A stretch of DNA of 64,000 nt from the NCBI GenBank assembly GCA_030390025.1, contig CM059430.1:62124001-62188000 (forward strand), given 5' to 3'. Of the stretch, positions 2,706 through 64,000 are shown one piece after another. Position numbers and translations under genes: made by a program. The notes below the pieces were generated by a model. The model did no database searches and was not told where the DNA came from. It was given only the letters and a program-made list of their open reading frames with translations. Source of the DNA: Squalus acanthias (lineage: Eukaryota). Position 1 is the first letter of the stretch; each line of letters opens with the position of its first letter.

Positions 2706-3464
2706 GGGGGCGAGTCATGTGCCGGGTGAGTACGCGTTGTGTACTTACCCGTAAGGCATCCTGAAGTGTCAGTTTCCTGCATGCACTGCGCATGCGTGGG
2801 AAACCGGAACTTCCGGTCTCGGGAAAGGAGGGGTTGAGAGGTGAACCGCGTGCGCGGTAGAGGCTGCGTGCACGCAGCGAACTTCGTTTTTTTTCAGGTT
2901 TCTCCGGGAAGGTAAGTATTGAAGAAACTGCGCTTTTAAAATGGAGGCGCAAGACCCGTTTTCAACAAGGTAAGTGGTTAATTAATTACAATGTTAATAA
3001 TTTTTCAACAGGTTTATCTTTTTTACTTACTTTAAAGAAAGGTAAGTTTATTTTTAGCACTTTTAAAAAGTATTTTAATTTTTTCAAAAATTTAAATTTT
3101 TGTTTAAAGTAGTTAATTTATTTAACTTATATTTATTTTAAAAATGTGATGGCTTTTTAAAAAAAATATTTGAAGTTTAGGTGTTGTTTTGGGGCCGATT
3201 TCAATTCATAGATTTGAAAGGTCTTCCTGTCAAATCTATGAATGAAAGATGGTCGGCTGCCATTGGATTTCCATGGCCCACGTGATCCCAGGGAACGCAT
3301 CGCACTAACTATGCCCCTGGGATACACAAGCATGCGCCCCGGAAGCTGCAGGAGGCCCAGGAGCTGAAGTCCCCATGAGCCCAGAGGTCAACGGCAGGCG
3401 CGGTAGGTAGGTGCGCGCGGGATCCTTGCACCCACAGGAAGCCAGGGAGACTAATTTCTGGGCC
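2706..3464. mobile_element. MITE (non-autonomous DNA transposon), same family as 4841-5551 but inverted; left end unclear
   Basis: Internal sequence matches the reverse complement of 4841-5551, including the hairpin at 3204-3243. Ends in AATTTCTGGGCC. Confidence 0.65.
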
Positions 3465-3732
3465 ATGATGTTCCTAAGGAGAATTATGCAAAATCTCCTC
3501 CATTATCGCCGCCCACCTGCAGTTCAAAGGTGCAACACACTGTAACAAGGGATAACATTAATTAACAGCATTCTTCTTTATATAATTAAAATTAAGTGGA
3601 AATTCAATATAAAAATTCTTCACTCTAGCTAAATTCTGTATATGTGTTAACTAATTGTCCAGAAATTACATTTCGGGATCCCGCATGACCAGCGTAACAT
3701 TGTCGGAGTACATGGAGACATTTCGTGGAAGG

Positions 3733-4479
3733 TGTAGCTTTTAAAAGCTCTTTATAGTAATTTTTACATGACTACAGAAACCACTCTGGCTAGAGGTATA
3801 TTGTGTATAAGTAAAACAGGTTTATTAAGCATTAAACATCCAGTATAAAGAAGTAATACTTAACAAGAAGATGGTCGCAGTTTGTTCATTGAACCCCGGC
3901 GTTCGTTCCAAGTGACTGTGGCAGCATCTCTGTAATTCTTGCTGTTTTATCTTGACTGAAGCTTCTCATCCTCTGGTATCGCACTGCTTTCAGTGTTCAA
4001 TAGGTGTTCCTTTATAACTCTTTTCCTTCATAATATATAGCAATTTGCAGCTGCTTGGGATATCTCACCATTCTGACCTTCAGAAGTACGATGTATGATT
4101 CTCTCCCCTTTTCTGCAGTGAGCTTTGAACATGATTACTTTTACATCTTTTGCCTTTCACATAGCCCATTACCTAGACTAGTCTGAAACTTCAGCGATTA
4201 GGTATGTTAGGTATTGAAAACCCTCTATCTTACTTTGAGACTTAATTAATGTTTCGTCCTCTGGTTTCTTGTTTGTAATATAACAGAAAATCTACACTAC
4301 CTCAGCACTATTCTTGCAGTTAACATAATTTTACCATCATGCTTTTATCTCAGCCGTTCGCCATTTTATACAGGCTTTTTAGGTTTTTAACATACAATTT
4401 CACATATTATAGTTGTTTAAAAATGGTTATAGAATCTTAATAATGTTTACTAAATCCTACAGGTACACTTTATTCTACA
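3733..4479 (-). repeat. 3' LTR
   Basis: TG...CA termini. About 90% identical to 12217-12974 (~18 differences in the first ~187 bp by hand). Minus-strand TATAAA at 4011-4016 and AATAAA at 3821-3826. Confidence 0.93.
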
Positions 4480-4482
4480 GAT

Positions 4483-4491
4483 CCCTACCTT
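4483..4491 (-). promoter_or_regulatory. Polypurine tract (PPT)
   Basis: Minus-strand AAGGTAGGG lies 3 nt upstream of the 3' LTR. Confidence 0.6.
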
Positions 4492-4840
4492 AAAGGCGAG
4501 GCATTTTGACGACCCCTCAAAACTAAAATCTTACATGTGGGTTTGTTCTCCCACGTTTATGTAATTCTAAGATATTCTGGGTTTTGATCATATTTAAACA
4601 CGATCGAATTTTGTACATTAGGTGTTTCAGGTGGCAGGTGCAAACTAGTAAGCATATCAGTACTACAAGTTGGGTGATGACCAGTACATGGGAAATTATC
4701 CTAATCCAAGGAGGAATTTCCATGTTAGTCCCTATGTTGTATTATTAGTCCTAACAATTTTTGTCTCCCTACCTATGGGTTACATATATCAAATACACTA
4801 TCATTACAAGTTGGAGAATTACCAGAGCATGTGAAACAAT

Positions 4841-5551
4841 GGGGCAGAAATTCGGCTCTCCGGCTTCCCGCGGTTGCAAGGATCGCGCTCGTACTTACCT
4901 AGCGCGCCTGCCGTTGTCCTTTGGGCCCGCATGGAATTCGGCTCCTGGGCCTCCTGCAGCTGCCGGCGCGCAGTGCTTGCGTATCCCAGGGGCGCAGTTA
5001 GCTGGAAGCGTCCCCTGGGATCACGTGGGCCATGGAGAGCCAATCGGAGCAGGGAATCTTCATTCATAGATTTTGACAGGAGGACCTGTCAAATCTATGA
5101 ATAGAGATCGGCCCCAAAACCTCACTAAAATTTCAAATACATTTTCTTTAAAAATCACATTTTCAAAATAACTATAATTACATAATTTTTGAAAAAATTC
5201 ATTACACTTTTTAACGGTGCTAAAAATAAACTTTCCTTTCTTTAAAGTATGTAAAAAAGATGAACCTGTCGAAAAAAATTTAAATTATATTTCATTCACC
5301 ACTTACCTTGTTAAAAGCAGGCCTTACGCTTCCTTTTTTCCTGCACAGCTTCTCCGTACTTACCCTCACGAAGAAACCTGAAAGAAACCCGAAGTTCGCT
5401 GCGTGCGCGCTGCCTCTCCGGCGCACGCGTTGGACCTCTGAAACCCTTCCTTCAGGGGAACGGAAGTGCATGCGCGAAACCGGCACTTTCGCTGTTTCTA
5501 CGGGTGAGTACACAGCGCGTACTCAACCGTGGAGACCCGAATTTTTGGCCC
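4841..5551. mobile_element. MITE (Harbinger-like), nested in the ERV env
   Basis: 21-bp TIRs GGGGCAGAAATTCGGCTCTCC / GGAGACCCGAATTTTTGGCCC (3 mismatches), 3-bp flanks AAT/ACT, non-coding interior. Confidence 0.8.
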
Positions 5552-5564
5552 ACTATGAACCTAT

Positions 5565-5866
5565 GGGCAGCATGGTGGCATAGTGGTTAGCACTGTTGCC
5601 TCACAGCGCCAGGGACCCGGGTGCGAATCCGGTCTCGGGTGACTGTCTGTGTGGAGTTTGCACATTCTCCCCATGTCTGCGTGGGTTTCCTCCAGTTTCC
5701 TCCCACAGTCCAAAGATGTGCGGGTTAGGTTGATTTGGCTATGATAAATTGACCCTTAGTGTTAGGGGGATTAAATACATGGGGTTACGGGGATAGGGTG
5801 GGCTATGTGTCGGTGCAGGCTAGATGGGCCGAAATGGCCTCTATCTGCACTGTGGGGAATCTGTGA
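5565..5866 (+). mobile_element. tRNA-derived V-SINE (HE1-like), nested in the ERV env
   Basis: A box TGGCATAGTGG, degenerate B box GGTGCGAATCC, V-domain CTGTGTGGAGTTTGCACATTCTCCCC...GGGTTTCCTCC...TCCCACAGTCCAAAGATGTG, CR1-like tail. Confidence 0.88.
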
Positions 5867-6344
5867 TGGTTGTGCTGATCTATTAAGCCTAATATCCCAC
5901 TAGTGTGAGTTGTCCCTTATGCTATCAATTTCAATATCTATTCTCGAATTGTCTTGTTTGAAAACATAAAAGTGCTTTAGGGAGGAGTTCATTCGCATCA
6001 CCGCTCACTGAAGCCCTCAGACAACAGGGGAATATATTACCCGAATTGTGCCACATAATTTTGCAGCTCATACTTGAGTATCTCATTTACTGTCAGTTTC
6101 ACTTGAGCATAGGTTTTGATATTGAGTAAAACGTTGATGGTTGATGGGACAGGTCCTGTTAGACCCGTAAAGCATGGCAGTTGCAGTAGTCGTGACACAG
6201 GAGGCACCATCAAAAACATCTCATAGTGGTACTGGTTTTTCCCACGCTCTGTTATCTACAAAACATAACTATTACAGTTACAAGTTATAATTAAGTCTTA
6301 CAATCATTTCACGTGACATTACAGTTTAACATCTAATCAACAAA

Positions 6345-8580
6345 TCATGAACTTAAAAGATTCTCCAGATCTCTTTCACTCGTATCCATCTTGTGGATAA
6401 TTCTTGCTGAACATGATTTCTCTTTAGCCCTCAATTGTCCCAATCCAAATTCTTCAACTTCAATTTCCATCCCTCTAACAGGTACCAGTGTGTTTAACTC
6501 TATTCTGAATGTTTCACTAATTAGATAGTTTCTCGGTGTAGTATGTGTCAATGCTTCAAAAGTTCTCTCCCTCTCCTTAGCCACATTAAACATTTCATGT
6601 CTTGCTGTTGTCAAGTAACTGAGTATGTCTGAGACCCGTTCTTCAGTGCAGATTCACCACGCATTTGCGGATGGTAATTGCTTCATATGTAACAAATCAC
6701 ATTTGCGCACTCATATCAGTATTTCAATATTGTGCCACACGTGTCCTCCAATACAAACCATTCTCGGGCTTTCAGGTATCTTGTCAAAAGATTGTAGTCG
6801 TCTGGAAATCTTTGCTCATCTTCCTCTGCAGTTTCCCGATGTCTTGGTTAGTGGTCATACTATAAAATTCAGTTTTCTTAAAAGGTTCATTGTAGGCAGA
6901 GACATAAATGTCTCCAAGAGAAAGTTATCAATTTACTATTCTTAGCTACACTTTCCTGACTTTCACTAGAAAGTTTTGAAAATTCCCAATCAGTAGTGTA
7001 ATTCTCCTGTTTCTATCTTACACCCTCAATCACGTCCTATCTCCATTTTAAACATCCCATTAATTACCATTCATATCTCATTCATGAGCCCTAGTGGAAC
7101 TTTACTGTCCAGTGCAATATTTAAGATTGAAAACATAGATAAAATGTTCTCACTTAGTCCAAGTTATTATCACTTTTTCTTTATCATTATTTTCGAGGAT
7201 CTTTTATTTTCCCAAAAGTAACCAAATATATAGTGCCTGAGTCCATTTTGTCATTTAAAAACTATCCCAAAATCCAATCAGCAGTACTGTTGAACTGATA
7301 CCGCAGGGTTCGGTGCGGGGGCCCCAGCTGTTTACATTATATATTCATGATTTGGACGAAGGGATTAATTGTAATATCACCAAATTTGCGGATGACACTA
7401 AATTGGGAGGCAGTGTGAACAATGAGGAGGATGCTAGGAGGCTACAGAGTGATTTGGACAGGTTGGGTGAATGGGCAAATGTATGGCAGATGAAGTACAA
7501 TGTGGATAAATGTGAGGTTATCCACTTTGGTGGTAAAAATAGGGAGGCAGACTATTACCTGAATGGTGGCAGATTAGGGAAAGGGGAGGTGCAACGAGAC
7601 CTGGGCGTCATGGTACATCAGTCACTGAAGGTGGGAAGGCAAGTGCAGCAGGCAGTCAAGAAAGCAAATGGCATGATGGCCTTCATAGCAAGGGGATTTG
7701 AGTACAGGAGTAGGGAGGTGATGCTACAGTTGTACAGGGCCTTGGTGAGGCCACACCTGGAGTATTGTGTGCAGTTTTGGTCTCCTAACTTGAGGAAGGA
7801 CATTCTTGCTATTGAGGGAGTGCAACGAATGTTCACTAGATTGATTCCTGGGATGGCCAGACTGACATATCAAGAAAGACTGGATGAACTGAACTTGTAT
7901 ACTCTGGAGTTCAGAAGAATGAGGGGGGATCTTATAGAGACGTTTAAAATCCTGACTGGCTTAGACAAATTCGATGCGGGCAGAATGTTTCCAATGTTAG
8001 GGAAAACTAAAACCAGGGGTCACAGTCTAAGGATAAAGGGGAAGCCATTTAAGTCTGAGATGAGGAGGAACTTCTTCACCCAGAGAGTGGTGAATCTGTG
8101 GAATTCTCTACCACAGAAGGTTGTTGAGGCCAGTTCGCTAAATATATTCAGAAGGGTATTAGATATAATACTCACAACTAGGGGGATCAAGGGGTATGGC
8201 GAGAAAGCAGGAATGGGGTACAGAGGTAGCCTGTTCAGCCATGAACGCATTGAATGGCGGTGCAGGCTCGAAGGACTGAATGGTCTACTCCTGCACCTAT
8301 TTTCTATGTTTCTATGTTTCTATGATAGGTTTTGTCAATGTTCAATTTAATTTCTGTCCAATTTATCTTATCAATTCCAAGTTCAGAAACAAGTGATTTC
8401 CAGGCTAGGTGGCTTAGACAGTGTTTTAACATTAGAGACAGAAGTGCTGCAATCAGTTTACAAGGTAACTTTCATATAACAAATGAAAGAAGAGAATCCA
8501 TTGTGACTCTGCTTAAGAGCCCAAGGGGTTAATTTATCAAATCATAATCTTCCTTCTGTCACTGTGGGGAAATATTAACT
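6345..8580 (-). pseudogene. Decayed ORF of unknown function inside the ERV, split by a CR1 insertion
   Basis: The frame continues across the CR1 junction (...INWTEIKLNIDKTYQFNSTADWILG...) and ends in ORF 6345-6614. It has scattered stops and frameshifts and no recognisable motif. Confidence 0.45.
7301..8324 (+). mobile_element. CR1 LINE, 5'-truncated, young (open RT C-terminal ORF 7313-8350)
   Basis: PQGSV.GP, FADDTK, RPHLEYCVQFWSP and RRNFFTQRVV motifs; (TTTCTATG)n tail; probable TSD TGATA at 7296-7300 and 8323-8327. Confidence 0.95.
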
Positions 8581-9630
8581 TAAAAGTAAGAAACTTAAAT
8601 TTAATAATGTCCAATATCTTTAAATTTCATTCAGCAATACTAAAGTTGTTGCTTGGTGAACTTAAACAGCTGTCAGTGGAAAGGGTTAACTCCTTTGCAG
8701 GTTTTAAGACGGCGGAGCGAAACATTGTCAGGTGCACACGATTGTGTCACTTCACGTAAATTTAAAAAATCTTCCCCGATCGAGAAAGACAGTTGTGTTT
8801 TCACACTTTAACTAAACACGAACAGAACAGATAAAACAAAACAAAATAGCACATGCTTGCAGAAAACAGTAAATTGTGTCATATTTCTTATTGTCCTTTC
8901 TTCAGATGCCTTTCCAAATGACTGTAAAAACATTGAATACAACTGGAGAAAAATTAGTTTTTCACATTTAAACAAATTAAATCAAACTGCCTTGGAAATT
9001 TCACCATAGTAACTGTGACTCCAAGGTTAAATTTTAGACTGACCCTTAAACTTTTGTTGAACAATTTTTTTGTTATTCTCCTCAGTTTTTGCACATCAGC
9101 TTAACTTAACTTGTAGTTCAAAGTTTCCTTTTTTAATTCTGGGTGCACATTCTTATTCACACATTCTTAAACTCCCAAAATCCAAGACAAGACTAAAGTT
9201 TTTTAATGATTTGTTTTACACAGAGAAGTGGGTGGAGCTGAAACACACACAACAGACAGTCTTCTAAAGACAGACTTTTCTGACAAAAGGAATACTGTAA
9301 CTTCTTAAACATTTATAGTTAGGAAAACTTTCACACTTTAACACATACTTTCACACAAACTGAAATTCCAGAATTTTTTTTAAGGTTCCTTAACTCAGCA
9401 ATCTTGTGTTTTATTTGTCTCGGCACAGATGTTAATAACTTCCATGTCGGTAAAACTTTAGGTTTCTCTCTCTTTTTTTCTTTTTTTAAATCGGCGTCTC
9501 AGCAACTTAGGGGTTACTTGAGTTCTAGTTAGGGCACCAACTGGTTGCTCAATAAATGCGAACTGTCCAGCGAGGTTTTCTCCATGTCACTGCTGACATA
9601 GGCTATGGCGGCTGTTGTAGGAGGAGGTGG

Positions 9631-10140
9631 TCAGGGAGGATATAATTCTCCCTCAGACGGAGGTAGGGAATGTGTCGGCAGTGTTATCTGCTGAGGCTTC
9701 TTTATAGCTAACACTGAGTGGGGGTCTGGAATTTGCCCTATATCTCCCCGTTTAGTCTCAACCCAAAAACAGTTCTGATTGTAATCTATAATGGCTGTCG
9801 TTCCCCGTAGGGTGTCATTGACAAGTATTCCCATTCCGCTGTTTATACACATATATAACGGATCAGTGATTTTTATGGGGAAGGCCTCAAGGGAAATACT
9901 AACTTCCTCTTCTGGGTATGCTGGTGCCTGTGCGCCGGTGAATCCTGTTTTTACAAAGCTATTTTTGGCTATTTCAAGCTGGCTTTCCGGGTCTGGGGAA
10001 TGCAGGATTGTAACAGATGAACCGGTGTCTATTAATATAGTCTGCTGTCGGCCCCCAGGCAGCAAAGCTGAGACTACCGGTCGACCATGGCCACTTCGTC
10101 TGAAATCCACTTCAGACCAGGCTGATGGGGCCGTATCCCG
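9631..10140 (-). pseudogene. pro: Retroviral aspartic protease (pol 5' end; RT absent)
   Basis: ILIDTGSSVTIL catalytic motif and GILVND (GxLGxD-like). In frame with gag after a TGA. Confidence 0.88.
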
Positions 10141-12066
10141 TCATAATGGGCCGTTGGGTTGTTGGGGCAATGGTGGGGGTGGGAATGGCGAACTCATAGT
10201 TGGAGCCACGGGGCACCCCGGCATCTGGGTCGATGCAAAAGTTTGCATAATACATGACTTTTTCTCCATACATGAACCTAGGGCATCTATTTTACTTTCC
10301 ATTGGATCGGGTGAATGGGACGGACCATATCGCGAGTAATTATTATTATTCCTCCCACATCCAGAGCCTGTCTGTCTAGGACCTCGGCAATCCTTTGCAA
10401 AGTGTCCCACCTTTCCGCAGTTATAATATATCAAGGGTTGCTTACGGGGTGGTGACGATGGGAAGGCCTGGGGTCCCTCAACTACATGCACTGGCGACTC
10501 TGCTGTTGGTACCTGAATCTGAGTTTTAGCGTAGGCGTTAGCATCTATTAAAAGATCTGTCCATTGCGAGTTGGGGCTGACAGTGTGCCCTAAGGCTGCT
10601 CGCAGTGAGGCCTCAATATTCTTCAAGTATATTTTCTTAAATGCTGCCTCATTCTTCCCGTTTAAGACATTATCATTGGGCGTGCCTCCATCATCTTATA
10701 AACAGTGTACAACTGATCCCCGAATGCAGCAGGGGTCTCATGAGACCCTTGTTGAGACTGGTTTAATTTCTGAACCAGATCAATAGTGTCCAAGCCCAGA
10801 GCTGTTTGTATAGTTGTGATTAAGTTATTCAGGAGGTGCCCCACATTAAAGACCATGACCATGACCAAGAGCAGACTGGTCAGTAGTTCTGGGGTTAAGG
10901 CAGACAGTATTAAATTTTTCATGTCACTGTCTTCAAGATTAGGATGGTAATTCCGGAACCCCACTATACGTTGCCTTAGCTCTATGGGGCATGTTCGTGG
11001 GTGAACTGGTCCGAATTGCAGGACACATGCCTATAGTTCTGCATAGTTCAGGGGCTGGGATTGTTCATAAGTACCCGCCCATAGCATTCCTGGGTGGGCT
11101 GCCGCTGGTTCTGCTCCTGCTTGTGCCTGGTCTACTTCAACAGCTGGTGGTGCGTTAGGAGTCACCTGGGTGCGAGTCAGAACATTAACTGGGGCTTTAA
11201 AGGGTGCAGGCTCGTCCACTGAGGTTTTTATGATTTTGTTATCAGCATAGGCTGGGGGCCTCTCAGTCAGATCGATGATGACATACGAAACGGGGGACAT
11301 TTGGGAAGGGTGTAGTAAGGGAGGATATAGTTCTCCTATGAACCCTTGGCATTGTTTATCATAACTCGCGGGGGCTCTACTTCCGTGACTGCCGCTATTG
11401 CAGCCCGTTGTTTACACAGCTGGTTTTCCAACTGTTGTATAGTAATATGACACTGCTTGTGGTTCGACACTCTTTGCGGGTACTGAAGAGCCTCTCTTAG
11501 GTCTCTTCATGAATCATTTAATTGTCTGGTAAGACGGTCATTGTCTTTTGTTAAGGAGGTTACCTGACATCTAGCCTCATCAAGATTCTCAATTGCAGCG
11601 CCAGCGTGAACTGCATTAATACTCTGTTGCTGTATTATTGCGGTCGAAGCACCGACCAGGCACTGACGAACTTCATTTTTACTTTTTAACTGTACAACCT
11701 CTTTTTCCAAGGTTGACTTCTCGCCGGTTAAAGTTTTTGTTATCTCCGTTAACGTTAGATTCTCTTCTATCAGCCGTAGCTTGGCTTTTTCTAATTTATC
11801 TAACTTGGTTTTATTATTCTCCATCTCTGGAAGGGTCTCTTTACTTTCTCTACAGAATCCAATGCCGCATAGGCCATTAGCTGCACTGCACTATCTGACT
11901 TCCATTTCTTCTCCTTAACTTGTTTCTCAATGGAAACAACAACGTCCTCAAAGGATACTCTCTTATCCTTTGTTAGACATGCTACTAGTAACGTCTGTAA
12001 CTGTACATCCTTGCACTTCATCATTAACTTCGTTTTAAAGTCTACAAAAACATTCTCACTCGACAT
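10141..12066 (-). pseudogene. gag: gag (N-terminal coiled coil, Pro-rich region, capsid-like segment, zinc knuckle), frameshifted
   Basis: Consecutive minus-strand ORFs: 11800-12150 (ATG 12066), 11507-11824 (heptads LDKLEKAKLRLIEENLTL), 11031-11300, 10662-10964 and 10141-10626 with YYNCGKVGHFAKDC (first Cys lost). Confidence 0.85.
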
Positions 12067-12216: not shown

Positions 12217-12974
12217 TGTAGCTTTTAAAAGCTCCTTATAATAATTTGTCCGGGACTACACAAATCACTCTGGGTGCAGTTATATTGTGTATGAGTAAAA
12301 CAGGTTTATTAAGCATTAAACATCCAGTACAAAGAAGTAATACTTAACAAGAAGATAGTCATAGTTTGTTCATTGAACCCCGGCGTTCCTTCCAAGTGAC
12401 TGTGGTACAGTCTCTTTAACTCTTGCTGTGTTCTGTTGACGGTGGCTTCTTATCCTTTGGTTTTGCGCCGCTTTCAGTGTTCAACAGCAGTTCCTTTATA
12501 CTTTTTTTTCCTTCAAAATACATAGCAATTTTCAGCTGCTTGGGCTATCTCACCATTCTGACCTTCACAAGTAAGGTCTATGATTCCCTCCCCTTTTCTG
12601 CTGTGAGCTTTGAGTATGAGAACTTTTACATCTTTTGCCTTTCCCATAGCCCGTTATCTAGACTGGTCTGAAACTACAGCGATAAAAGATGTTAGGTATT
12701 GAAAACCCTCTATCTTACTTTGAGACTTAATTAATGTTTTTTCCTCTTGTTTCTGTTTTTATTATAACAGAAAATCTACACTACCTCAGCACTATTCTTG
12801 CAGTTAACATAATGTTGGCTTAATTTTGCGATCATGCTTTGGTCTCAGCCATTCGCCATTTTATACAGGATTTTTAGGATTTTAACATACAATTTCACAT
12901 ATTATCGTTATTTACAAATGGTTATAGAAACTTAATAATGTTTACTAAATCCTACAGATACACTCTATCTTACA
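12217..12974 (-). repeat. 5' LTR
   Basis: Direct repeat of 3733-4479, adjacent to the PBS; TATAAA at 12495-12500 and AATAAA at 12305-12310 on the minus strand. Confidence 0.93.
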
Positions 12975-13539
12975 AAGGGATCTGACCAATTTCACTGCAG
13001 TAGCAGTGCAGGATAAAAAAAAATAAAGCGCCAGTATTTAGAAGTACACACCTGCTGTTTGATCTAGATTGTGTATAATGTCGATAGATATAAAGAATGG
13101 ATCTGATATAGCGTCTTCAGGCGAAGCCATTGTACATTCTAGATGTTAAGAAATGTTACAGGGCAAATACGACGTTTAGTTGCGGTTGAATGTGACCTTT
13201 ACGCGTATGCGGCGCTTTGCAGGCTTTTGCAAAGAACAGAGCTAAATTTAAATACTTGAACTGCTGCTGTGTGGAGGTGAATTAATGAGCCACATTCTTC
13301 ATTTAGCTGGAAAACGTGATGCGCTCGTGTCACTATTTCCGAACATGTTAAATTACTGCAAAAACCACACGGTCAAAAGCTTCGCTATTTCCTTACATTT
13401 CATCAGACTACGTGATAAATCGAACATACAGACACTTCACGCTGCTATATCTGAATTGCTTATTATTCCGGAATCGGGTTATTAAATTAATCCTTACCCC
13501 AATTATATATTCTCCAATTTGGAAACAGTTGGCCGATAA

Positions 13540-47211: not shown

Positions 47212-47908
47212 GTGGTGAATTAGTGTTGGTGCTAACTGTTAGCGCCTAGGCGTCTAGCGCCGCTCACATGTTGACGCCAATGCATGTGCAATGCCCCGTT
47301 AATGGCTACGATGCAAAATTGCCTTTTGCCCCCTGCTTTAGCGCCTCGCTCTAACAACGCAAGTAGGAGGAAGTGTTGTGCACTCAGAAGTGTGCTGCAG
47401 GAGCAGTAATAAAAGGGAATGCTTCCGTGTCGCTGGAACATCGCGAGAAAGACTCTTTCACTGATCGCACCGTTTTTTACTAGCACCAATCTGCTGCTTG
47501 CACAAAATCTTTTACACCTTTTCTTCAAACATCGCCAAGTGCTGCACTTTCTGAAAGTGATGGGGGCTGCAATGGCAGTCGCCCAGGTCGCAGTGAAAAA
47601 CACCACTGATGACTATGAGGTTATACAGAGTGATTGGCCCTTCCCTTTAAGAGATGAAACCAGACTGTGTGATTAAAGAGTGCCGGTTGGACTGCACATG
47701 ACCTTCTGTATCGCTCTGCCTGTAGCGCGCCACTCTCAGAGGATAGTATCTTAAATTAGGAGTGTAGCGCTTGATTTAGAGCTCCACTTCCCTCTTGGAG
47801 CGCCAACAATGAATTTGACGGGAGTCAACAATGATTAGCGCCTGGCGCTAATTCTTCAACTTTTAAAGTTTTAGCGCCCCAAACGGGACTATACTGAATT
47901 TCTCCCCC
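47212..47908. mobile_element. Harbinger-derived non-autonomous element (left end uncertain)
   Basis: Repeated TTAGCGCC subterminal motifs; right end CTGAATTTCTCCCCC. Confidence 0.55.
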
Positions 47909-47909
47909 T

Positions 47910-48576
47910 GGGGGGAAAATTGGGTTGCTTTGCATCTCCCGTTAGTGCCCCAGGGCTTGCTAATGATGCGCAAAGCCCTTAGTGCATTGGCGCGCACCGC
48001 TAACGCCTCCTGCGAAATACAGCAGGAGGTTAGCAGCGGCGGAAGATGGTAGCACCCTGCGGCATTGCGCCTCCGGCGATTACTTCAGTTGCGCCCCCTG
48101 AACTACCGCCGAACGATATGTCTGACAGGGTCAGGGTGGCGCTTGTGCAGCCACGGCAGCGCAAATTAAAGGCCAGGTGCCCCTGAGGCCATTTTTGTTG
48201 TATCACCTACCAGCACCTGCCCCCTTTTGCTTCCTCATGCGGGGTGCCGGCCGCAATTGGTCAGCCTGGCACCGCTCTTGAGTGCCGGGCTGTTTTACCG
48301 GCATCCCGATCCCCAGTCGTCCTTTAATCAGGGGAGGGTGGCCTGTAATAATGCGGTGCTATGTGCTGACGCACATTGTTCTGCTGCACGTAGCACCATG
48401 ATATTGAATGGTAGCGCCCCAGGAAGGAGGGGGAGCGCTTCCAATAGCACCCCGCCTCCTGCTTGGGGTGCTAACACTCAATTTACGGCAAAGGGGTGCT
48501 AACATTTTCGGGGCACTAAAGGAACTACCCAGGCGAAGTTACTGCCCCAAAGGAGGCGCAGCCGAATTTTTCCCCC
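47910..48576. mobile_element. Harbinger-derived MITE
   Basis: TIRs GGGGGGAAAATT / AATTTTTCCCCC; left end resembles the reverse complement of the right end of 48601-52765. Confidence 0.75.
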
Positions 48577-48958
48577 AAGAAGTCTTACTGCAATTATATA
48601 GGGGGAAAAATTAGGTCGCGCCCCGTTTGGGGCGCAAATATCGTCTGGACGCAAAAATTAGCACCTGGCGCTAATTATCGCCACTGACTGGAAACTTCAC
48701 TTTTACCGGCCCGGGAGGTGAGTGGAGCACTAAATCAGGCCCTGCACACCTGTCTTAAGGCGCAAAGGCCGAGCAGTGAGGTGCTAACTCAGCGCGCGAG
48801 CGCAGCGCAGGTGCTGCCAGTTAGCGAGGGAACACAGACACACTGACGCCGGCCAGTTCTTAAAGCGGGGGGGCCAACTTGCTCCCCAGCCACACCCTGC
48901 TCATTGCAGCCTTGAATCTCGACCTGGAGAGACCTGTGAATCCATTTTGCTGCCAAGG

Positions 48959-50778
48959 ATGGAGAGGGTGAGAGAACGAGCTCAGCGCTTCACCGAGCGG
49001 GCCTTGGATGCTCTGGTTGGCGTGGTGGAGCGCAGAAGATCTATACTCTTCCCTGAGAGTGGCAGGAGGCCTTTGCCACGCGAGTACAGAAGAGTGTGGA
49101 GGGAGGTGGCTCAGAGCGTCTCCTCCAGGGGCATGGTGCCCAGGACCCATGTTCAATGCCGCAAAAAGTTCAACGACCTCACTCGGGTCGTCAGGGTGAG
49201 TGGCTTTTTCTCAATACCTCTCCATCCCTCCATCTCAACCTCACTCTATGGCCAGAGGGTCTTAAAACCCCAATGCACAACACTCATCCAACACCTATGG
49301 CCCATTCATTAAACACACACAGACATTCCACACTTTGCATACAGTAAGGGTTATTCACCTATGGGAGGCATATCAGGCAAGACCATGGCTGCATACAGTA
49401 AGGGCTATTCACCTATGGGAGGCACATCAGGCAAGACCATGGCTGTATATTTACTCAGATGCTGTCCTTTTACTTGCAGGCCAACATGGCGCATAATAGG
49501 AGACAACAGCAACGGACAGGTGGAGGGCGGCCTCAGCTGCAACGCCTCAGCGATCTTGAGGAGCGCGTCCACAGGATTGTGGCAAGCCGGGTGATCGGTC
49601 CCGTCGCCACTGGAGACGCCGACCCCGTTCTGGACAGCAATGGTAAGGTCATCACCTTTTTGTCCTCTGTCCTTCCACTTGTCCCTCACAACACCAGCCT
49701 TTGACACTTTCAATCCAACTTGCTAACTCGCTGCACTTATTCCTCCCTTACTGCCACCCTGTCCTCACGCTAAAGCCACTCTTGTACCTCCCTGCTTTCA
49801 GATGGTGATTCACCAGCTGAGGAGACGGGCCCTGAAGCTGCCAGTGGGAGTGAAGCTGCAGCCGAGGAGGAAGAGGAAGCCGGAGCATCAGTGCCACCCT
49901 CTCCCGAGGAAGCCCATGCCCACACTGGGAACACGCCTTCCCTGGAGGGGAGCAGGGGGGAAGGGTCTGATGAGGGTGAAGCTCCAGGACCCAGCGGGCT
50001 GCAGCAACGCCATGGGGGTAGGGAAGAACGGGGGCCTTCTCCCCAGAGGGAGAGTATGCCAGCGACTCCTACTGCAATGGACGCAGAGGAGGAGCGGCTG
50101 ATCGCAGAAATGAACACCCAGGCGGTGGGCATGCACACTGAGCTCATGGGTGCAGTGGGAAGGGTGCCCGAATGCATTGAGTCACTGGCAAGGAGTGTGG
50201 AGCACTTCGCTGTAGCACAGGCGGATGCCACACTAAAGCTTAGTGCTGCAATTCAGTCACTGACTGCCGTGATCCCATCTCTGACTGCTCTCATGCAGAC
50301 TCAGATTGAGGCCACGCAAGCACTGACTGCTGCCAACCTCGATGGTTCGTTCACATGTCCCCGGGGCTCTCACCGTGCCGCAGCAGGCCAGCAATCTGTG
50401 CTCCAGCAGATTGCTCCGGATGCTGAAGTGCTGCCCCTTGGGAGTGCCAGTGTGTCGGTCGAGCAGGGAGTTACTGTCCTCTCTCACAATGACAGCATTC
50501 CTGCTGCCAACACTGTCACTTCTCCACTGCACTTGCCACCGCCTGTAGGACAGACTGCTGCCGCCCATGCAGAGTTGGTGCAGTCTGCAGCCGGGCCCTC
50601 CAGGCCCAGAACTGTTCGAGGCCGTCCTTCAGGGGCATCTGCAGTGTCAGGGTCTGACAATCAGCAGCCTTCCACCAGCCTTGCTGCAGCCACTGAGGTC
50701 CCATTACGGAGGAGCAGTAGGGTTAGAAGGGGGGAAGTGCGCAAGGGAAGGATATCACCCTCGAACGGCAAAAAGTAG
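48959..50778 (+). CDS. Harbinger Myb/SANT-like DNA-binding protein, 3 exons (48959-49195, 49480-49642, 49802-50778), 458 aa, intact
   Basis: RERAQRFTERALDALV...WREVAQSVSS...PRTHVQCRKKFNDL and RTGGG motifs; GT-AG introns; the spliced 1377 nt are open to TAG. Confidence 0.85.
49337..49444. repeat. 54-bp tandem duplication in Myb intron 1
   Basis: GCATACAGTAAGGG(T/C)TATTCACCTATGGGAGGCA(T/C)ATCAGGCAAGACCATGGCT x2. Confidence 0.9.
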
Positions 50779-51089
50779 GAGGTGTGACAAAATGCCGGTC
50801 ATTTTTTTATTAAAGGCCGAGGTTCGTGGTCCAACTTTTGTCTAGTGTTTTGGACATTATCTCCAGGTTGTGACAACCAGTTATGTTAATGACTGTTTTT
50901 TGTGTTTATTTCTATGAGTTTTTCATGAGGAAATGACACACACAGAGTTAGTAAAATAAATAAGTTTTTGTATTCAAAATATACATGTTTGGTGTTTGGA
51001 ATCATTGGTGCCTTGGCCAGCTTAGGGGTTGCGTGCTGGGTTCATTGATGTTGTTAGCAATGGCAGAAGCCATTTCCACAGCAGGGGCC

Positions 51090-52249
51090 CTAGAAGCGGC
51101 TTGCTATCAGCCGTTGACGGACGGCCCTTGCAGTTTCACAATAGTGGGCCGCCCTCCCGCCTGGTGCTGCTGAATATCATCCTCCTCGTCCTCTTCCTCC
51201 TCTTCCTCCTCCTCCTCTGGTGGTGCTCCAAGGCCTGGTGGCATTGGCTGGGTCCTGACGATTGCCATGTTATGCAACATGCAGCACACAATTACGAAGT
51301 TGGATACTCGCTCATGCGAGTACTGCAGGGCTCCTCCAGAATGGTCGAGACAGCGGAACCGTTGCTTCAGCACGCCGATTGTGCGCTCAATGATGTTCCT
51401 GGTAGCTTGATGGCTCTCGTTGTACCGCAGCTCAGCAGGGATGTTGGGCGTACGGAGCGGTGTCATCAGCCAGGTGCTCAATGGATACCCCTTGTCCCCG
51501 AGAAGCCAACCAACTGGCTGATGCGGTGCCTCGAAAAGTTCTGCCACAGTAGTCTGGCGCAGGATGAAAGCATCGTGGCAGCTGCCAGGATAGTGGGCAT
51601 TGACAGCGAGTATCAGCTGTCTGTGGTCACAGACCAACTGAACATTCTAGGAATGGGACCCCTTTCTGTTCCGGAAATCCTCGGCATTCTCATGTGGAGC
51701 ACGCAAAGCCACATGCGTGCAGTCAATGGCGCCCTGCACCATGGGGAAGCCCGCTATCCTCGCAAAGCCCAGAGCACGGTCACGCTGCTTGTATGGGGTC
51801 ATGGGGAAAGAGATGAACTCTCGTCTCCTTTTAAAGAGGGCATTTGTGACCTGCCGGATGCAGCAATGCACCGCGAACTGGGAGATATTGGCGAGGTCCC
51901 CAGCAGCAGCTTGAAATGAGCCAGTAGCATAGAAATTGAGAGCCACTGTGACCTTCACTGCCACCGACAGAGACGTCCTGGACCTCAGTTGAGGCTGCAG
52001 ATCTGGCTGCAGCAGGTGGCAGAGCTCAGTGACCACCTCCTTGCTGAATCGCAGCCTTCGCAAACACAGCTCCTCAGACAAATGAATGTAGGAGAGCTGT
52101 TCACGATATACCCTGGGAGGGTAAGCTCTCCTCTACAGACGCCTGTTGGCCCTCCTCCGTCTGGCCATCATTGCCACTCTCTCTCTGCGTCTCTGTGTCC
52201 TCCGATTCAGCTGGAGCAGGACGACGCCCCAATTCAGTGCAGCCCCCAT
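51090..52249 (-). pseudogene. Harbinger DDE transposase (HARBI1-like) with 2 nonsense codons and a likely C-terminal frameshift
   Basis: [48 protein letters not shown]; in-frame TAG at 52133-52135 and 51647-51649. Confidence 0.92.
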
Positions 52250-52928
52250 AGTCTCTTTGCAAGCAAAGTAATGAAGGACAGCAACCAAAGCACCAGCGAA
52301 GTTAGGATCAGTAGGCAAAACTACCTCACAAAGCGTTGACTTAATGCAGAAGTCTCTCTTTCTCTCTCTCCGAATCTCTCTCTCTCTCTCTCAGAACGTG
52401 TGGGGCAAAAATGTCAACCACAGAAAAAGACAGGAAGAGGCCCCCTTTAAATAGCGCCCCCCCCCCCAGCCCCACAGCGATTGATAGCGTTCCAGTCTTC
52501 CGGCCGTTGGATGCGCCAGGCGGTAAGGCAGGGGGCGCCACTCAATTTCCGCTCCGGGGCGCCACAAGGGCGTTGCGCCATGGAATGACGTCACAATCTG
52601 CGCGCGCAGGTGGTCGCAGCGGTAAAGTTTAGCGCCGCCGCACAATGTCTAGTTAAGTTCCCGAGCGGCGCAAACATCGCTGCGCCCGGGCGCTAGCTGC
52701 TTTGCGCCCCATTAGCGCCCTCTTAAGGCGCTAACGGGAGGCGCAACCAACTGAATTTTTCCCCCTATAAAGGCCACACCTGAAGTACTGTGTTCAGTTT
52801 TGTTGTCCTTTCCTAAGGAAGGATATAATTGCCTTACGGGGAGCGCAATGAAAGTTCACCAGACTAATTCCTGGGATGGGGGTTTGTCTTATGATGAGAG
52901 ATTGAGGAGACTAGGCCTAAAATAACAA

Positions 52929-55298
52929 GGGGTAGAAATTCATTATAGCCCAGGAATGGGCACAAACTTCTGAAAACTTTGAGATTGAGCGCCAAGAACT
53001 AATGCAACTCGCTGCATGCTAACTTAAGTGTTAGCGCTCGAAGAAAGGACTAGAATGCTACCTCAAGCGTTAATGACCTGGCTCTGTGGCATTAGACTCA
53101 ATGTGCTAAGCAATTGCATGTGCAGTCAAATCGCTAGTCATCATTGCCACAGGCTCTTTCCAGTTCAATCATGCTGCAAAACTTCATTCTCAGCATTGCT
53201 GGTTCTGCAGCTTTCTCAGCAAGCAGCAGAAGGAGAAGGAGAAGGAACTGGACCGCTGAAGGAGGTGTCATTATGGCAGATTAACGGTCTAGAGAGAGAG
53301 CTCGGAGATTCTTAGACCAAGGATTGGAGGCCTTGATCCTCGCTGTGGAAAGACAGAGGGTGGTGCTATACCAGTCAAGTGTCAGGATGCCCTCGCCGCA
53401 AGTATTCAGTGCCATGTGGAGGGAGATAACCCAGCAGGTCTTGGGCAGCACTGTGGTCCCCAGGACCCAAACACAGTGCAGGAAGAAATTTAACGACCTC
53501 ACTCGGGTCGTCAGGGTGAGTCAATGCTTCAACAAATGCTACATCCCACCATCTGAACCTCAGTCTGCACAAACTGCCCAAAGCACTGCACACCCAGCAC
53601 TCACACACCAACCGTCTGCAACTCCCAACACTCACACCTGCATCTCACAGCTTGGACACAATGACAGCTACTCAACTATGGCAGGCACATCTCCCAAACA
53701 CATTGCTCCACACTACTCACACACTTTCCTTTCTCATGCAGGCCAAGGTGGCTCACAACAGGATAGAGCAGGAGTGCACAGGCGGGAGGCAACCTGACAC
53801 CCAACCACTTCTGAGCTGGTGGAAAGAGTGCTCAAATCATCGGGCGCCAGGTGGTGGACGTCGTGGCCACCGGCGATGTTGACCCCCTTGGGGACATCAA
53901 CGGTATGTTTATCCCTACTCCTGCTTGTCACATCTCACTTCACACTCACCCCACAAGCCTTTCCCACTTTCCAAGCTAATCATGCTGTATGCATGCCTTT
54001 CTCCCTTCCTGATCACTCCCCTCACCTTAAACCGACTCTTGGGGTTGCGGAGGGGTGTCATGAGCCAGGTGGAGATCAGTTAGTCCTGTCTCCGACCATC
54101 CATCCATGAGCTTGATATGATGGCTGGAAGAGTGCAGGTACACCAGTCCTGCAAAGGATGAAGGCATTGTGGCTGCTGCCAGGATAGCGGGCATTCACAT
54201 TGAGGATTCGCTGCCTGTGGTCGCACACCAACTGCACATTAATTAATTGTTTTCCTTTGCGGTAATGGAAGAGCTCAGGATTGTTATGCGGTGCCCACAA
54301 AGCCACATGGATGCAGTAAATGGTGCTATCCCGGCAAAGCCACATGCACGTTCATCCGGCTTCTCTCTGGTGATGGGGAAGGAAATGTAGTCCCTTTTCG
54401 GACTGTAGAGAGCCTCTGTGACCTCCCGAATGCAAGGATGGATTTTTGCGATACCTTCTGTTACAGACTGGAATGAACCGCTGGTGAACAAATTGAGGGT
54501 TACGGTGACGTTGGCTGCCACTAAATAAGCCGTGGTCGACCTGATCTGAGGCTCGAGGTCTGGTTGCAGGAGGTAGCAGAGTTTGGTGAGCACATCCTGA
54601 AGTGAGGCCTTCTAATGCACGGCTCCTCACTTAATTGGAGGTAGGAGAAGGGCTCTCTAGAATACCCTCCGAGGGTAAGACCTCTTGTTGAGAGCCCTGA
54701 TGGCCCACCTCCTCCCTCTGGCCACATCTTGCAATCTTTCTCGCTGCCTCTACTCCCTCCCCAGTAGATCCTGGAGGACGAGATCGACTACCAGTACAGC
54801 CCCCATTAATGTAACGATGTGTTGCACTTTGAAATTTTGTCACAATAAATTTAACAAATTTTTACTTGACACATTACTCCTGATACTAAAGTACCTTTAA
54901 ATGACTGAATTAAACTCTTGCACAATTGCAAACTGACAAGGAAGCAGTGAAACAGTACTAACCTGACAGCTGTGACTCATCAATTTAAATAACGACACCG
55001 GAGTCGCCAACAGCCTAACACGCCTCCTCTTCCTGTCATTGTTGGGGCGAGGAGCTAAGGCATGGGGTGATAATCAATTTGGCAGATAGGGTGCTCAGTG
55101 AGCGTTGCACGCTCATTAGCATCATGATCTGCATGGCGCTAAAGCCCCAGGTGCTAACTGTTAGCAGCGGCGCTAAGGGGCGACTGGATTTGGTGTGCGG
55201 TGCTGGATCCACCTCACCCCGGCGCTACTTCATTAGCCTCCAGTTAGCGCCCGTGACAGGTGCAAACGGGAGAGGCTGAACAACTAAATTTCTCCCCC
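52929..55298. mobile_element. Second Harbinger, internally deleted and decayed
   Basis: TIR GGGGTAGAAATT / AATTTCTCCCCC with flanks CAA/CTA; Myb exons 1-2 (PRTQTQCRKKFNDL, 53273-53902) and transposase N-terminal two-thirds ([17 protein letters not shown], ~54040-54800 minus); the 3' ends of both genes are deleted. Confidence 0.88.
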
Positions 55299-58199: not shown

Positions 58200-60350
58200 C
58201 AAGCTGTAGCAAAAAACACAAGAAATATAAAAACTGATTTTAATAGCTTTCACAAGAATGTAAGGCCTAAGAGATTAGCGAAAGTAAACGTGGGTTCCTT
58301 TGAGGCATAGACAGGATAAATTATAATAGGAAATAAAGAAATGGCAGAGATGGTAAACAAATATGTTGTATCTAACTTCACAGTAGAGGATGCAAAGAAC
58401 ATACCGGAAATTTTAGGGAACCTAATGTCTAATGAGAGTGAGGAACCTAAATTTATTAATATTAGTAAAGATAAAGTACTGGAGCAATTAATTGGACTAA
58501 AATCCGACAAATCCTCTGGACTGCATTGTGGAGTTTTAAAAGAGGTGGTTGCAGAGATAGTGGATTCATTGACCGACACATCCCCTGGACTATATTGTGG
58601 AGTTTTGAAAGAGGTAGTTGCAGAGACAATGGATGCATTGGTTTTGATCTTCCAGAATTCGCTAGATTCTAGAACTGGACCTGTGGATTGAAAGGTAGCA
58701 AATGTATCCACGCTTTTCAAGAAAGTAGTGAGTGAGAAACCACGGGCTATAGGCCATTCAACATGAAATCAGTAGTAGCGAAAATTCTAGAATCAATTAT
58801 TAAGGAATTGGAAAATAACAATGGCGCAGATATTCTGATCCCTATGAGTGGTTACGCGCTGTGCACCCACCCGTAGGGACATCAGAAATGCCAGTTTCAG
58901 AATCCTCTTGACAGATCCTCCGGCTGCCCTAGATAAGGGCCTCTGCGAGCGAATAGTTTCACTTTTTGGAGACCCTCCGCCCGCAGAAAACCCTTACAAT
59001 TCTTACGACTGTTACAAAAAAATGTTTTCACTGATTTATCATTTAAAAATACTTTAAGAAAGGTAAGTTTATGTTTAGCCCTGTAAAATACTATAATTAT
59101 TGTTTTCAAAAGATTACATTTTTGTTTAAAATACTTAATTTATTGTAATTTCCAGTCATTTCAAAAAATGTGATTTAAAAAAAAATGTATTTAAAGTTTT
59201 GCTATGTTTTTTCATTGATCTCCATTCATATATTTGAAAGGTCATCCTGTCAAATGTATGAAGGGAGATTCCCTTCTGTGATTGGCTCCCCATGGCCCAC
59301 GTGATTCCAGTGATGCTGCGAACTACATGCGCCTCTGGGATACCTGGGCCCTGCGCACTTGGAGCTTGGTGAGGCCCAGCATCGGAACTGTGCGCGTCCC
59401 GGGAGCCCTCAGGTAAGGGCTCAGATTTTTCCAGATCGCAGGCCTTCACCCGCGGGAGGCCTGCGATCGGAAAATACGGGTCAATATGATTATGCAGAGT
59501 CAACACAATTTTCCGAAATGAAAACTGTGTATGACAAATCTATTAGTTTCCTTTGGGGTGTAACTAGCAGGGTAGATAAGGGGAAACCAGTGTGTGCAGT
59601 ATATTTGGATTTCCTGAAGGCATTCGATAAGGTGCCACACAAGAGGTTGTTACACGAGATTAGGCTCATGGGACTTGGGGGTATGATATTACCATGGATT
59701 GAGGATTGGTTAAAGGCCAGAAAACAGAGAGTAGGTCATTTTTGGCAAATGGTATGATCGTCTTTCTTGCAAGTGGGCTGGATTATATAAGTAAGGAAGG
59801 CTTGCTCCAATTTTATAGTGCATTGGTGAGACCGCACCTGGAGTACTGTGTACAGTTTTGGTCTCCTTACCTAAGGAAGGATATACTTGCCTTAGAGGGT
59901 GCAATAAAGGTTCCCTAGCTTGATTCCTGGGATGGGAGTGCTGTCCTCTGAGGAAAGGTTGACCAGAATGGGTCTATATTCTCTGGAGTTATTTTGAAAC
60001 GTATAAAATTCATAGAGGGCTTGACAGTGTAGATGCTGAGAGACTGTTTTCCCTGGCTGGAGAGTCTAGAACTAGGGATCATATTTTCTGGATAAGAGTC
60101 GGCCATTTAGGACTGCGATGAGGAGAAATTCCTTACTCAGAGGGTTGTGAATCTGTGGAATTCTCTACCTGAGAGGGCAGTTGATTCTCAGTCGATGTGT
60201 ATATCAAGACTGAGATCGATAGATTTTTGGGCATTAAGGGAATCAAGGGATATGGGGATCGGTCGGGAAAGTGGAGTTGACGTAGAATTTCAGCTATGAA
60301 CTTATTGCATGTTCGAGGGGCTGTTTGGCCTATTCCTGCTCCTATTTCCT
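58200..60350 (+). mobile_element. CR1 LINE fragment, decayed, with a nested MITE and a 69-bp internal duplication (58504-58641)
   Basis: YLDFLKAFDKVPH and RPHLEYCVQFWSPYL; duplicated GLHCGVLKEVVAE / GLYCGVLKEVVAE. Confidence 0.88.
58823..59484. mobile_element. MITE of the 4841-5551 family, nested in CR1
   Basis: Shares the hairpin (59225-59262) and ATTGG...CCATGGCCCACGTGA core; CR1 sequence resumes on both sides. Confidence 0.7.
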
Positions 60351-61380: not shown

Positions 61381-64000
61381 GGGATTGGGACACGTGCTAT
61401 TAGTAATTAGTCTTGGTCACTCGCTGGATGTAGTACTCGAAGCTCAGGTCAGATACGCACTTGCTAGGTTGTGCATTGTCAGTTTGATCCTGAGCAGGAA
61501 TCCTGGAAAGGGATGGTACTGAAGGGGAAAGCACTGAGATTCTGCCAGTGGCCGAACAGTTTAACATCTGCCTTCAGTGAGATCAGTCACGGAACAACAG
61601 ACAATGAATAATATAAAGTGTGAACAATTAGCTGTTGTGGTGGGTTAATATATTATCCTTTCAATAATTCCACCTCTAAGTGAAGCATGCCCGCGTGAAG
61701 CGATCGAAGTCCCCAATCCTATTCTATTCCTCCCAGAGATTCCTACATGAAACGCGTTTGAGACGTTTGTTGATCAATTTCTAAAGGACAAGAGCCTACA
61801 ACAGAAAAAGATAATTCGTAATTAGAGACGAATTTTCTATTCCGTGGCCCCGCAGGGGCGGACATATACGAGGGTGATGGGAATAGCTGTAGCAGGGAGA
61901 TGGCAATATCTACTCCAGTACAAAAAGGATTCGCAATGCTGATACAAGAACTGAGAGGATATACTTATCACAAAAGGCTGAACAGGCCAGGGCTCTTTTC
62001 TTTAGAAAAGACAAGGCTGAGGGGGGATCTGATAGATGTCTTTACGATTATGAAAGGAGTTGATGGGGAAGACGAGGAGGAAAGTAATAGAAGGATGGGC
62101 TAATGATCTTTAGATGAAGAAAACAACTAAAGAATGGCTTGCATTTATACAGCCCCTTTCACGACCACAGGACTTCCCAATACACTTTACATTCAATGAA
62201 AAAGTTTTGACGTGTAGTTACTGGTGTAATGTAGGAAATGTGGCAGCCAATTAGTGCGCAGCAAGCTCCCACAAACAGCATTGTTATAATGACCAGAAAA
62301 TCTGTTTTTTTTGTATTGTTGATTGAGGAATAGATATTGACCAACACACCGGGGATTACTTTAATGCTCTTCTTCTAAATCATGCCGTGGGAATTTTTAC
62401 ATCCACCTGAGAGTGCAGACGGGGCCTTGTTTTAATGTCTCATCTGAAAGACAATGCAACACACCCTCAGTACTGCATTCGAGTTTCAGCCTAGATTGTT
62501 GTGTTCACATCTCTGGGTGGGAGGAGGCTCATGTGGAGCATAAACGCTCGGCTGAATGGCCTGTTTCTGTGCTGTAGACTCAATGGCCCGGATTCTGAGG
62601 TTCCGCTGACGGAATTTTATCCTTCGGAAAGGCCCTGCAATTTCTGGGTTTACACATGCGCTGCATATGCGCGAAAACATAGACTTTGCAATCTGCCTAC
62701 GTTCATCTTGACAGATCTACCGAACCGAATAGAAAATCACTTTCGCTTATGCAGAGTTGGGGATTGGGACACGTGCTATTAGTAATTAGTCTTGGTCACT
62801 CGCTGGATGTAGTACTCGAAGCTCAGGTCAGATACGCACTTGCTAGGTTGTGCATTGTCAGTTTGATCCTGAGCGGGAATCCTGGAAAGGGATGGTACTG
62901 AAGGGGAAAGCACTGAGATTCTGCCAGTGGCCGAACAGTTTAACATCTGCCTTCAGTGAGATCAGTCACGGAACAACAGACAATGAATAATATAAAGTGT
63001 GAACAATTAGCTGTTGTGGTGGGTTAATATATTATCCTTTCAATAATTCCACCTCTAAGTGAAGCATGCCCGCGTGAAGCGATCGAAGTCCCCAATCCTA
63101 TTCTATTCCTCCCAGAGATTCCTACATGAAACGCGTTTGAGACGTTTGTTGATCAATTTCTAAAGGACAAGAGCCTACAACAGAAAAAGATAATTCGTAA
63201 TTAGAGACGAATTTTCTATTCCGTGGCCCCGCAGGGGCGGACATATACGAGGGTGATGGGAATAGCTGTAGCAGGGAGATGGCAATATCTACTCCAGTAC
63301 AAAAAGGATTCGCAATGCTGATACAAGAACTGAGAGGATATACTTATCACAAAAGGCTGAACAGGCCAGGGCTCTTTTCTTTAGAAAAGACAAGGCTGAG
63401 GGGGGATCTGATAGATGTCTTTACGATTATGAAAGGAGTTGATGGGGAAGACGAGGAGGAAAGTAATAGAAGGATGGGCTAATGATCTTTAGATGAAGAA
63501 AACAACTAAAGAATGGCTTGCATTTATACAGCCCCTTTCACGACCACAGGACTTCCCAATACACTTTACATTCAATGAAAAAGTTTTGACGTGTAGTTAC
63601 TGGTGTAATGTAGGAAACGTGGCAGCCAATTAGTGCACAGCAAGCTCCCACAAACAGCATTGTTATAATGACCAGAAAATCTGTTTTTTTTGTATTGTTG
63701 ATTGAGGAATAGATATTGACCAACACACCGGGGATTACTTTAATGCTCTTCTTCTAAATCATGCCGTGGGAATTTTTACATCCACCTGAGAGTGCAGACG
63801 GGGCCTTGTTTTAATGTCTCATCTGAAAGACAATGCAACACACCCTCAGTACTGCATTCGAGTTTCAGCCTAGATTGTTGTGTTCACATCTCTGGGTGGG
63901 AGGAGGCTCATGTGGAGCATAAACGCTCGGCTGAATGGCCTGTTTCTGTGCTGTAGACTCAATGGCCCGGATTCTGAGGTTCCGCTGACGGAATTTTATC
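61381..64000. repeat. Tandem duplication, 1379-bp unit (61381-62759; 62760 to window end)
   Basis: Identical ORFs at 61900 and 63279; only ~3 substitutions noticed over ~1240 bp. Confidence 0.95.
62135..62505 (-). mobile_element. Deu-domain SINE (second copy at 63514-63884)
   Basis: Reverse complement of the Deu core and tail seen at 1325-1588. Confidence 0.8.

Follow-up and report, generated by a model that had tools for sequence, protein, structure and literature searches.

Introduction

Defective recombinant endogenous retroviruses (ERVs) are a known and common kind of element, and the events that produce them are well known in mammals. The recKoRV elements are recombinants between koala retrovirus and PhER (PMC6112702). 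Non-canonical mosaics, Harlequin among them, make up 1959 of 3173 chains of human ERVs (HERVs) in one survey (PMC4724089). In cartilaginous fish, ERVs related to snakehead retrovirus (SnRV) have been described in the elephant shark as CmiERV lineage I (PMC4422223) and as clade Huo (PMC6001957).

Here we analyze a 64,000-nucleotide stretch of Squalus acanthias DNA, referred to as the window. The minus-strand feature at 12974-3733 is a 9.2-kb LTR element, an old defective endogenous retrovirus with gag and protease. Like recKoRV, it is a defective provirus whose LTRs match, whose ends bear a target duplication and which has no pol of its own. Its ends would come from one element and its interior likely from another, through non-homologous joins, as in recKoRV (PMC6112702). 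For recKoRV both parents, which are dissimilar, and many loci have been identified; here one locus is seen, and the two parents would be related to each other, with a distance of about 33-38% in common blocks. The joins here also differ in leaving duplicated coding pieces, and gag and protease are retained. Harlequin-type mosaics are similarly formed within a class and defective in pol, and they are attributed to co-packaging and polymerase jumps; unlike the element here, they belong to primate class I and their re-integration is proven (PMC4724089). A mosaic of two lineages is the best but unproven reading of the element.

The element and its setting

The window consists of repeat-rich DNA with many LINE fragments plus Harbinger-type transposons. 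All parts of the element given below lie on the minus strand unless stated otherwise. LTR comparison identified a 5' LTR of 758 nt (12217-12974) and a 3' LTR of 747 nt (3733-4479), with TG...CA ends and with mismatches at 85 of 744 aligned sites (11.4%). The 4-bp target-site duplication CCTT is present on both outer sides (12975-12978 and 3729-3732). A primer-binding site, which we take to be of the tRNA-Lys type, is located 3 nt past the 5' LTR (12213-12196), and a purine-rich tract precedes the 3' LTR (4480-4493). The gag and protease of the element are related to retroviral Pol proteins. The two LTRs match each other, no third LTR is found inside, and all parts of the element are in the sense orientation. 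We found no second copy of the element within the 64-kb window, and Rfam gave zero matches there.

The AT-rich part of the interior at 8324-9460 (33% G+C) contains no coding remnant recognizable by sequence inspection or Pfam. The interior at 5871-7298 is degraded and has no Pfam match in three frames; an env ectodomain is possible there by position only. Across nine frames of the interior, Pfam gave no match to env. The element has also received later insertions. A LINE with an RT fragment, which has many relatives in the window, occupies 7299-8323 on the plus strand (Pfam, tblastx). Repeat search located a SINE-like insertion with approximate boundaries at 5565-5866 on the plus strand, and an unstranded MITE-like insertion with terminal inverted repeats at 4841-5551, with a second copy at 2809-3466. 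With a further member at about 59019-59387, the MITE-like family has at least three related copies at 70-78% identity.

Harbinger-type transposons are located at about 47900-52750 and 53100-54500, and the first appears well preserved. A Myb/SANT-like frame of this type is found on the plus strand by Pfam, and a nuclease-like frame was recognized by eye on the minus strand at about 52230-51050. Two segments identical over at least 300 nt (61381-61680 and 62760-63059) form a direct repeat spaced 1379 nt, which is either a recent tandem duplication or an assembly artefact.

Gag, its stop codon and the protease

The gag reading frame starts near 12066 and is broken by several stops and frameshifts. 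Its 5' part (11337-12066) contains frameshifts, a stop and a coiled-coil-like stretch, for which Pfam returned only weak coiled-coil matches below the cut-off. The coiled-coil-like region at 11890-11340, upstream of the gag linker, recalls the Gag proteins of foamy viruses, BHIKHARI and ERNI. The linker itself, hereafter copy 1, was delineated by translation and motif inspection (11157-11336). Within it are a late-domain-like LYPPL (11330-11316), a PPAY (11258-11247) and PVNVL-TRTQVTP, a putative protease site. In MLV and RSV, late-domain motif classes sit between MA and CA (PMC8402826). The conserved words of the linker would fit a late-domain-like LYPxL with PPxY, followed by a cleavage site ahead of the capsid. 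The cleavage site is suggested because similar motifs, PVHVV and HSVLA, occur at other expected domain borders.

A probable capsid region follows at 10665-11087. It is helical in a low-confidence model and bears a weak likeness to Latimeria P0008 Gag (E 0.085). The single-sequence fold of mid-gag had a pLDDT of 41 and a fold search of the PDB gave no match, so the capsid is not confirmed in this way. A 6-nt unit is repeated 2.8 times inside the capsid frame at 10867-10851. The nucleocapsid contains a single zinc knuckle (10387-10428; Pfam zf-CCHC, 26.9 bits, cut-off 20.8).

Translation places the gag stop in the context TGA-CGG (10138-10143), and gag and protease share one frame across it, an SnRV-like arrangement. 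This suggests translational readthrough at the stop. UGACGG belongs to the type II readthrough hexamers, known from alphaviruses and coltivirus, and the fish and frog retroviruses listed in the same paper have other UGA or UAG contexts (PMC13517186). No stable RNA structure was found 3' of the stop (z -0.55). The aspartic protease, identified by protein searches, has DTGSS at 10029 and extends up to the Pol linker motif, DPHSVLAIK (9700-10140). In a protein atlas it was linked in general terms to aspartyl proteases, and the capsid region yielded no atlas result. A PDB sequence search with the protease gave no meaningful match, and the NC-protease and mid-gag pieces used as protein queries against longer proteins gave none.

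Pol similarity ends at the start of the reverse transcriptase

A search of the protease frame against 1.84 billion protein representatives yielded two matches, both distant, P0003 (33%) and P0004 (32%). P0003, a Xenopus tropicalis entry, is a full-length Pol that includes a tether and an RNase H, and its closest relatives are frog and Latimeria proteins. We then compared 121 Pol-type proteins, most of them Pol only, with the element by tblastn. Similarity to Pol stops at 9661 (P0003), 9679 (P0004 and P0010) or 9700 (three frog proteins), and one Latimeria alignment extends loosely to 9637. None of the 121 proteins matches the element from 9630 to the 3' LTR at E 0.05. Six of eight relatives have a KHD[CR]G motif 40-46 residues past the linker motif; of the other two, one ends early and one has no linker match. 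At that position the window contains a second copy of the gag linker.

Because Pol similarity stops and the KHD[CR]G position holds the gag copy, the RT is cut short after 10-20 codons, with the gag copy joined in frame at junction 1, about 9660-9652. The first residues of the RT region, at which Pol similarity ends, occupy 9661-9699 as judged by tblastn and motif comparison. No RT, RNase H or integrase was found in the element past about 9661. The initial annotation had placed the Gag fragment right after the protease. The two are in the same frame, and the 10-20 RT-like codons intervene.

P0003 and P0006-P0010 form a poorly resolved basal group of retroviral Pol proteins from frogs and the coelacanth, for which the annotations are NYNRIN-like or Gypsy integrase-like. 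In the Latimeria member the end of Gag is rich in glycine and arginine and no knuckle was seen, unlike in the element in the window. An RT-core tree was built from 41 of 42 matches chosen among 120 listed, one being left out for short overlap, and included no named reference virus. In this tree P0003, which with other frog and Latimeria proteins represents the nearest intact Pol relatives, groups with retroviruses (99/94) and falls in neither the gamma/epsilon-type subclade nor a clade presumed Loki-like from its motifs.

A second gag piece behind the protease

Copy 2 is a diverged homologue of the gag linker (9509-9651; nhmmer and alignment), joined in frame to the protease and containing one stop and one frameshift. 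When gag (12070-10140) was compared with 9700-4480 by nhmmer, copy 2 was the single match (E 4e-6, 13.4 bits); the best score in 200 dinucleotide shuffles was 3.2 bits. The local DNA alignment of the pair has a score of 54.6, which none of 200 shuffles attains. At these levels, chance similarity is refuted. The signal is weaker at the protein level in a single frame, where 2 of 200 shuffles attain the score.

The peptides, codons and coordinates first reported were correct; copy 1 lies at 11336-11157 and copy 2 at 9651-9509. In the first six codons 17 of 18 nucleotides are identical. A third common block, KTSxD (11228/9579), has 13 of 15 identical nucleotides. LTRTQVTP is the same in both proteins, as originally noted, and 7 of its 24 nucleotides differ, all synonymously. 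Copy 2 is shorter than copy 1 by 36 nt, an in-frame length difference, and hence lacks PPAY. Its halves are in different frames owing to a 1-nt length difference at 9564-9560, and its stop codon is at 9633-9631.

Homology of the pair ends at QVTP, and none was found upstream of GELYPP (10 of 200 shuffles attain the score). An apparent continuation into capsid past copy 2, an ELR...FxN likeness near 9390, was rejected; over the next 300 nt, 449 of 500 shuffles did equally well. A 23-nt match further off from copy 2 was set aside as unrelated (5 of 200 shuffles attain it). Past copy 2, translation gives 16 basic codons in frame and then a stop (9461-9508), and shuffles support no capsid similarity there. 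Although strongly basic in translation, this stretch may not be protein at all but an A-rich tract of low complexity. A similar motif, PVHVV, is found at 10494 without wider homology. GELYP and PVxxLTRTQ occur in 0 of the 121 Pol-type proteins, most of which are Pol only.

Age of the gag pair and selection on it

Over three ungapped blocks the gag copies are mismatched at 44 of 135 sites, a divergence threefold that of the LTRs. The binomial probability of this many differences is 5e-11 at the LTR rate and 8e-6 at the rate of the most diverged LTR bin. Since its divergence is far above the LTR rate, the gag pair is older than the insertion. The copy had initially been attributed to a different related element rather than to neutral local duplication. 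Neutral duplication after insertion is excluded by the LTR comparison (P 5e-11), but no donor gag lineage was found.

The proposal that the copies diverged under coding selection is supported. Over all 44 alignable sense codons, pS is 0.49 and pN 0.26 (Fisher P 0.012), and the Jukes-Cantor ratio is 0.40. All changes are synonymous within the eight-codon block but not outside it, and 25 of the 44 sense codon pairs are the same in protein. In fully neutral simulations, 1.4-3.2% of runs produced 25 identical codons. When one branch was constrained and the other neutral, this count did not reject the model (P 0.15); only the following statistic did (P 0.0004). Eight identical codons with 7 synonymous changes appeared in at most 0.04% of neutral or one-neutral-branch runs and in 1% at omega 0.3, a statistic chosen post hoc. 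Because the test covers only 44 codons with end points picked by similarity, the selection signal is moderate, not strong. G-to-A hypermutation was considered as a source of the synonymous changes and rejected, since the substitutions show no bias in direction (G>A 5, A>G 5, C>T 8, T>C 7).

A probable second pair beside the 3' LTR

The top row of the internal tblastx comparison (29.9 bits) is not the gag pair but a pair of transmembrane-like stretches 141 nt apart. Stretch A is at 4778-4840 (hydropathy 2.29) and stretch B at 4637-4699 (hydropathy 2.75), with an open tail towards the LTR. They share 11 of 21 residues, 9 of these within the first 12, and have a pS of 0.52 and a pN of 0.33. Their 24 differences in 63 sites are similar in proportion to the 44 of 135 in the gag pair (P 0.52) and greatly exceed the LTR rate (P 4e-8). 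The score of the pair was attained by 0 of 300 local shuffles and 1 of 25 whole-element shuffles, which do not preserve hydrophobic bias. A sliding DNA search missed the pair, all 4 of its matches being the gag pair. A block beyond the SINE and the MITE is in register with the pair but weak (3 of 14 identical). Homology of A and B is probable. By position, both would be env membrane anchors, and junction 2 would be at about 4775-4750.

Relation to known retroviral lineages

The element has a single knuckle, the UGA-CGG readthrough context and a primer site, presumably Lys-type. Its markers point to a lineage like that of snakehead retrovirus. With SnRV the element shares one zinc knuckle and the gag-pol readthrough arrangement (PMC1224870, PMC13517186). 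The stop context differs, UAG-GGC in SnRV and UGA-CGG in the element. The comparison is one of described features, and the element has no RT to place.

P0003 matches foamy PR-RT at 243.7 bits, slightly above MLV RT at 236, and its best integrase match is foamy. The element has a 4-nt target duplication and what we take to be a Lys-type primer site. Both features are found in foamy-like ERVs of fish and amphibians (PMC5210030, PMC5512871). However, such ERVs have no Cys-His boxes, and their gag and pol are expressed separately (PMC5210030), whereas the present element contains a knuckle and its protease is in frame with gag. Assignment to the foamy-like ERVs (FLERV) was rejected on the zf-CCHC match above cut-off.

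Lokiretroviruses and BHIKHARI resemble the element in having a coiled-coil stretch ahead of the capsid, and pol-less families exist among them (PMC7947760; bioRxiv 2024.03.25.586437). The capsid and the long PR-RT spacer of Lokiretroviruses were not matched by eye, and gag is broken here (PMC7947760). The motifs HKHDC, TRTQ and GELYP are absent from the part of the supplement of that paper that was examined. Lokiretroviruses are marked by an RT of the Loki clade, a fusion-protein-like Env and a long PR-RT spacer. The P0003-type relatives have a short PR-RT spacer and lie outside the presumed Loki clade. A Lokiretrovirus assignment was considered but not adopted.

Discussion

We think it fairly probable that the interior of the element derives from a related, long-diverged retrovirus through two out-of-register template switches before insertion. 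One element would have contributed the LTRs, gag, protease and the last transmembrane stretch. A second, the donor, would have contributed the interior from the second gag fragment through stretch A, and may represent a separate lineage. The switches would have taken place during reverse transcription of co-packaged RNAs, the joins being made by the RT. Two switches are proposed because two duplicated coding pieces of equal age are found, one at each end of the interior. The equal divergence of both pairs fits one divergence time for the two parents, and the transmembrane pair is a second, independent hint of a two-lineage mosaic at the 3' end. An extra deletion in the donor is needed because the gag homology stops at QVTP; the region from capsid to integrase could have been already absent from the donor, or lost later. 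The product would have been integrated with the enzymes of a helper, as its target duplication is intact and it has no integrase of its own.

The common motifs were likely kept in both parents for their roles, a LYPxL resembling a late domain and a site of protease cleavage preceding the capsid, and copy 2 is most likely without function in the present element. For the donor, a gag search gave no match and the all-protein search returned only the two distant protease matches (32-33%). A literature search of openly accessible papers returned no account of the element, or of any ERV carrying a comparable second gag fragment.

A single parent could also account for the arrangement, although we consider this unlikely. 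Its genome would have contained, downstream of pol, an accessory frame that was an ancient paralogue derived from gag, together with a duplicated end of env. One deletion beginning at the start of RT would then have placed the paralogue beside the protease. This would explain why homology ends at QVTP and why copy 2 runs in frame into the 16 basic codons. In foamy-like ERVs of fish, accessory frames are found between pol and env and there are accessory genes that are paralogues, but these are not described as gag-like in the available part of PMC5512871. Two independent duplications of equal age would be required, and the absence of GELYP and PVxxLTRTQ from all 121 Pol-type proteins also speaks against it, if weakly, as most are Pol only.

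Quite unlikely in our estimate is that the element belongs to a pol-less family of Gag-protease elements that was amplified and represents an undescribed basal lineage with one knuckle, UGA-CGG readthrough and a Lys-type primer, in which a second late-domain and cleavage module, fused in frame behind the protease, would be kept by selection, or that the parent virus had a gag-derived accessory gene. Our literature search found no gag-derived accessory gene for any retrovirus.

Insertion of a second provirus into the pol of the first in the chromosome, with later deletions taking its LTRs and most of both pol genes, is very doubtful. Mosaics are known to arise by secondary integration (PMC4724089), and the element is old and has taken up three other insertions. 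However, the interior showed neither a third LTR nor a second primer site, and at least three deletions would be required, two of them removing the donor's ends exactly.

We give little credence to an old self-duplication, a non-homologous jump in the ancestor of a long-lived non-autonomous family in which copy 1 was selected and copy 2 drifted. The overall identity count (P 0.15) and the nearly identical first six codons (17 of 18 nt) are compatible with it. The eight identical codons with 7 synonymous changes are not readily produced this way (0.04% of simulations, post hoc), and the transmembrane pair is left unexplained. A neutral copy made after insertion, or a chance resemblance between proline-rich and cleavage-site motifs, is barely credible: such motifs do recur (PVHVV at 10494) and 2 of 200 shuffles attain the single-frame protein score, but the three colinear blocks (E 4e-6; 0 of 200 DNA shuffles) and a divergence far over the LTR clock (P 5e-11, or 8e-6 with the most diverged LTR bin) stand against both.

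No general principle is altered by a mosaic origin of the element, mosaics being 1959 of the 3173 chains in the human survey (PMC4724089). Pol-based ERV screens are blind to pol-less elements of this kind. If the two-lineage mosaic reading is true, a single locus keeps pieces of two extinct relatives side by side, and their comparison reveals LYPx, KTSxD and PVxxLTRTQVTP as constrained Gag motifs. Recombinational degradation of the recKoRV kind would then have already acted on a basal retroviral lineage in cartilaginous fish.
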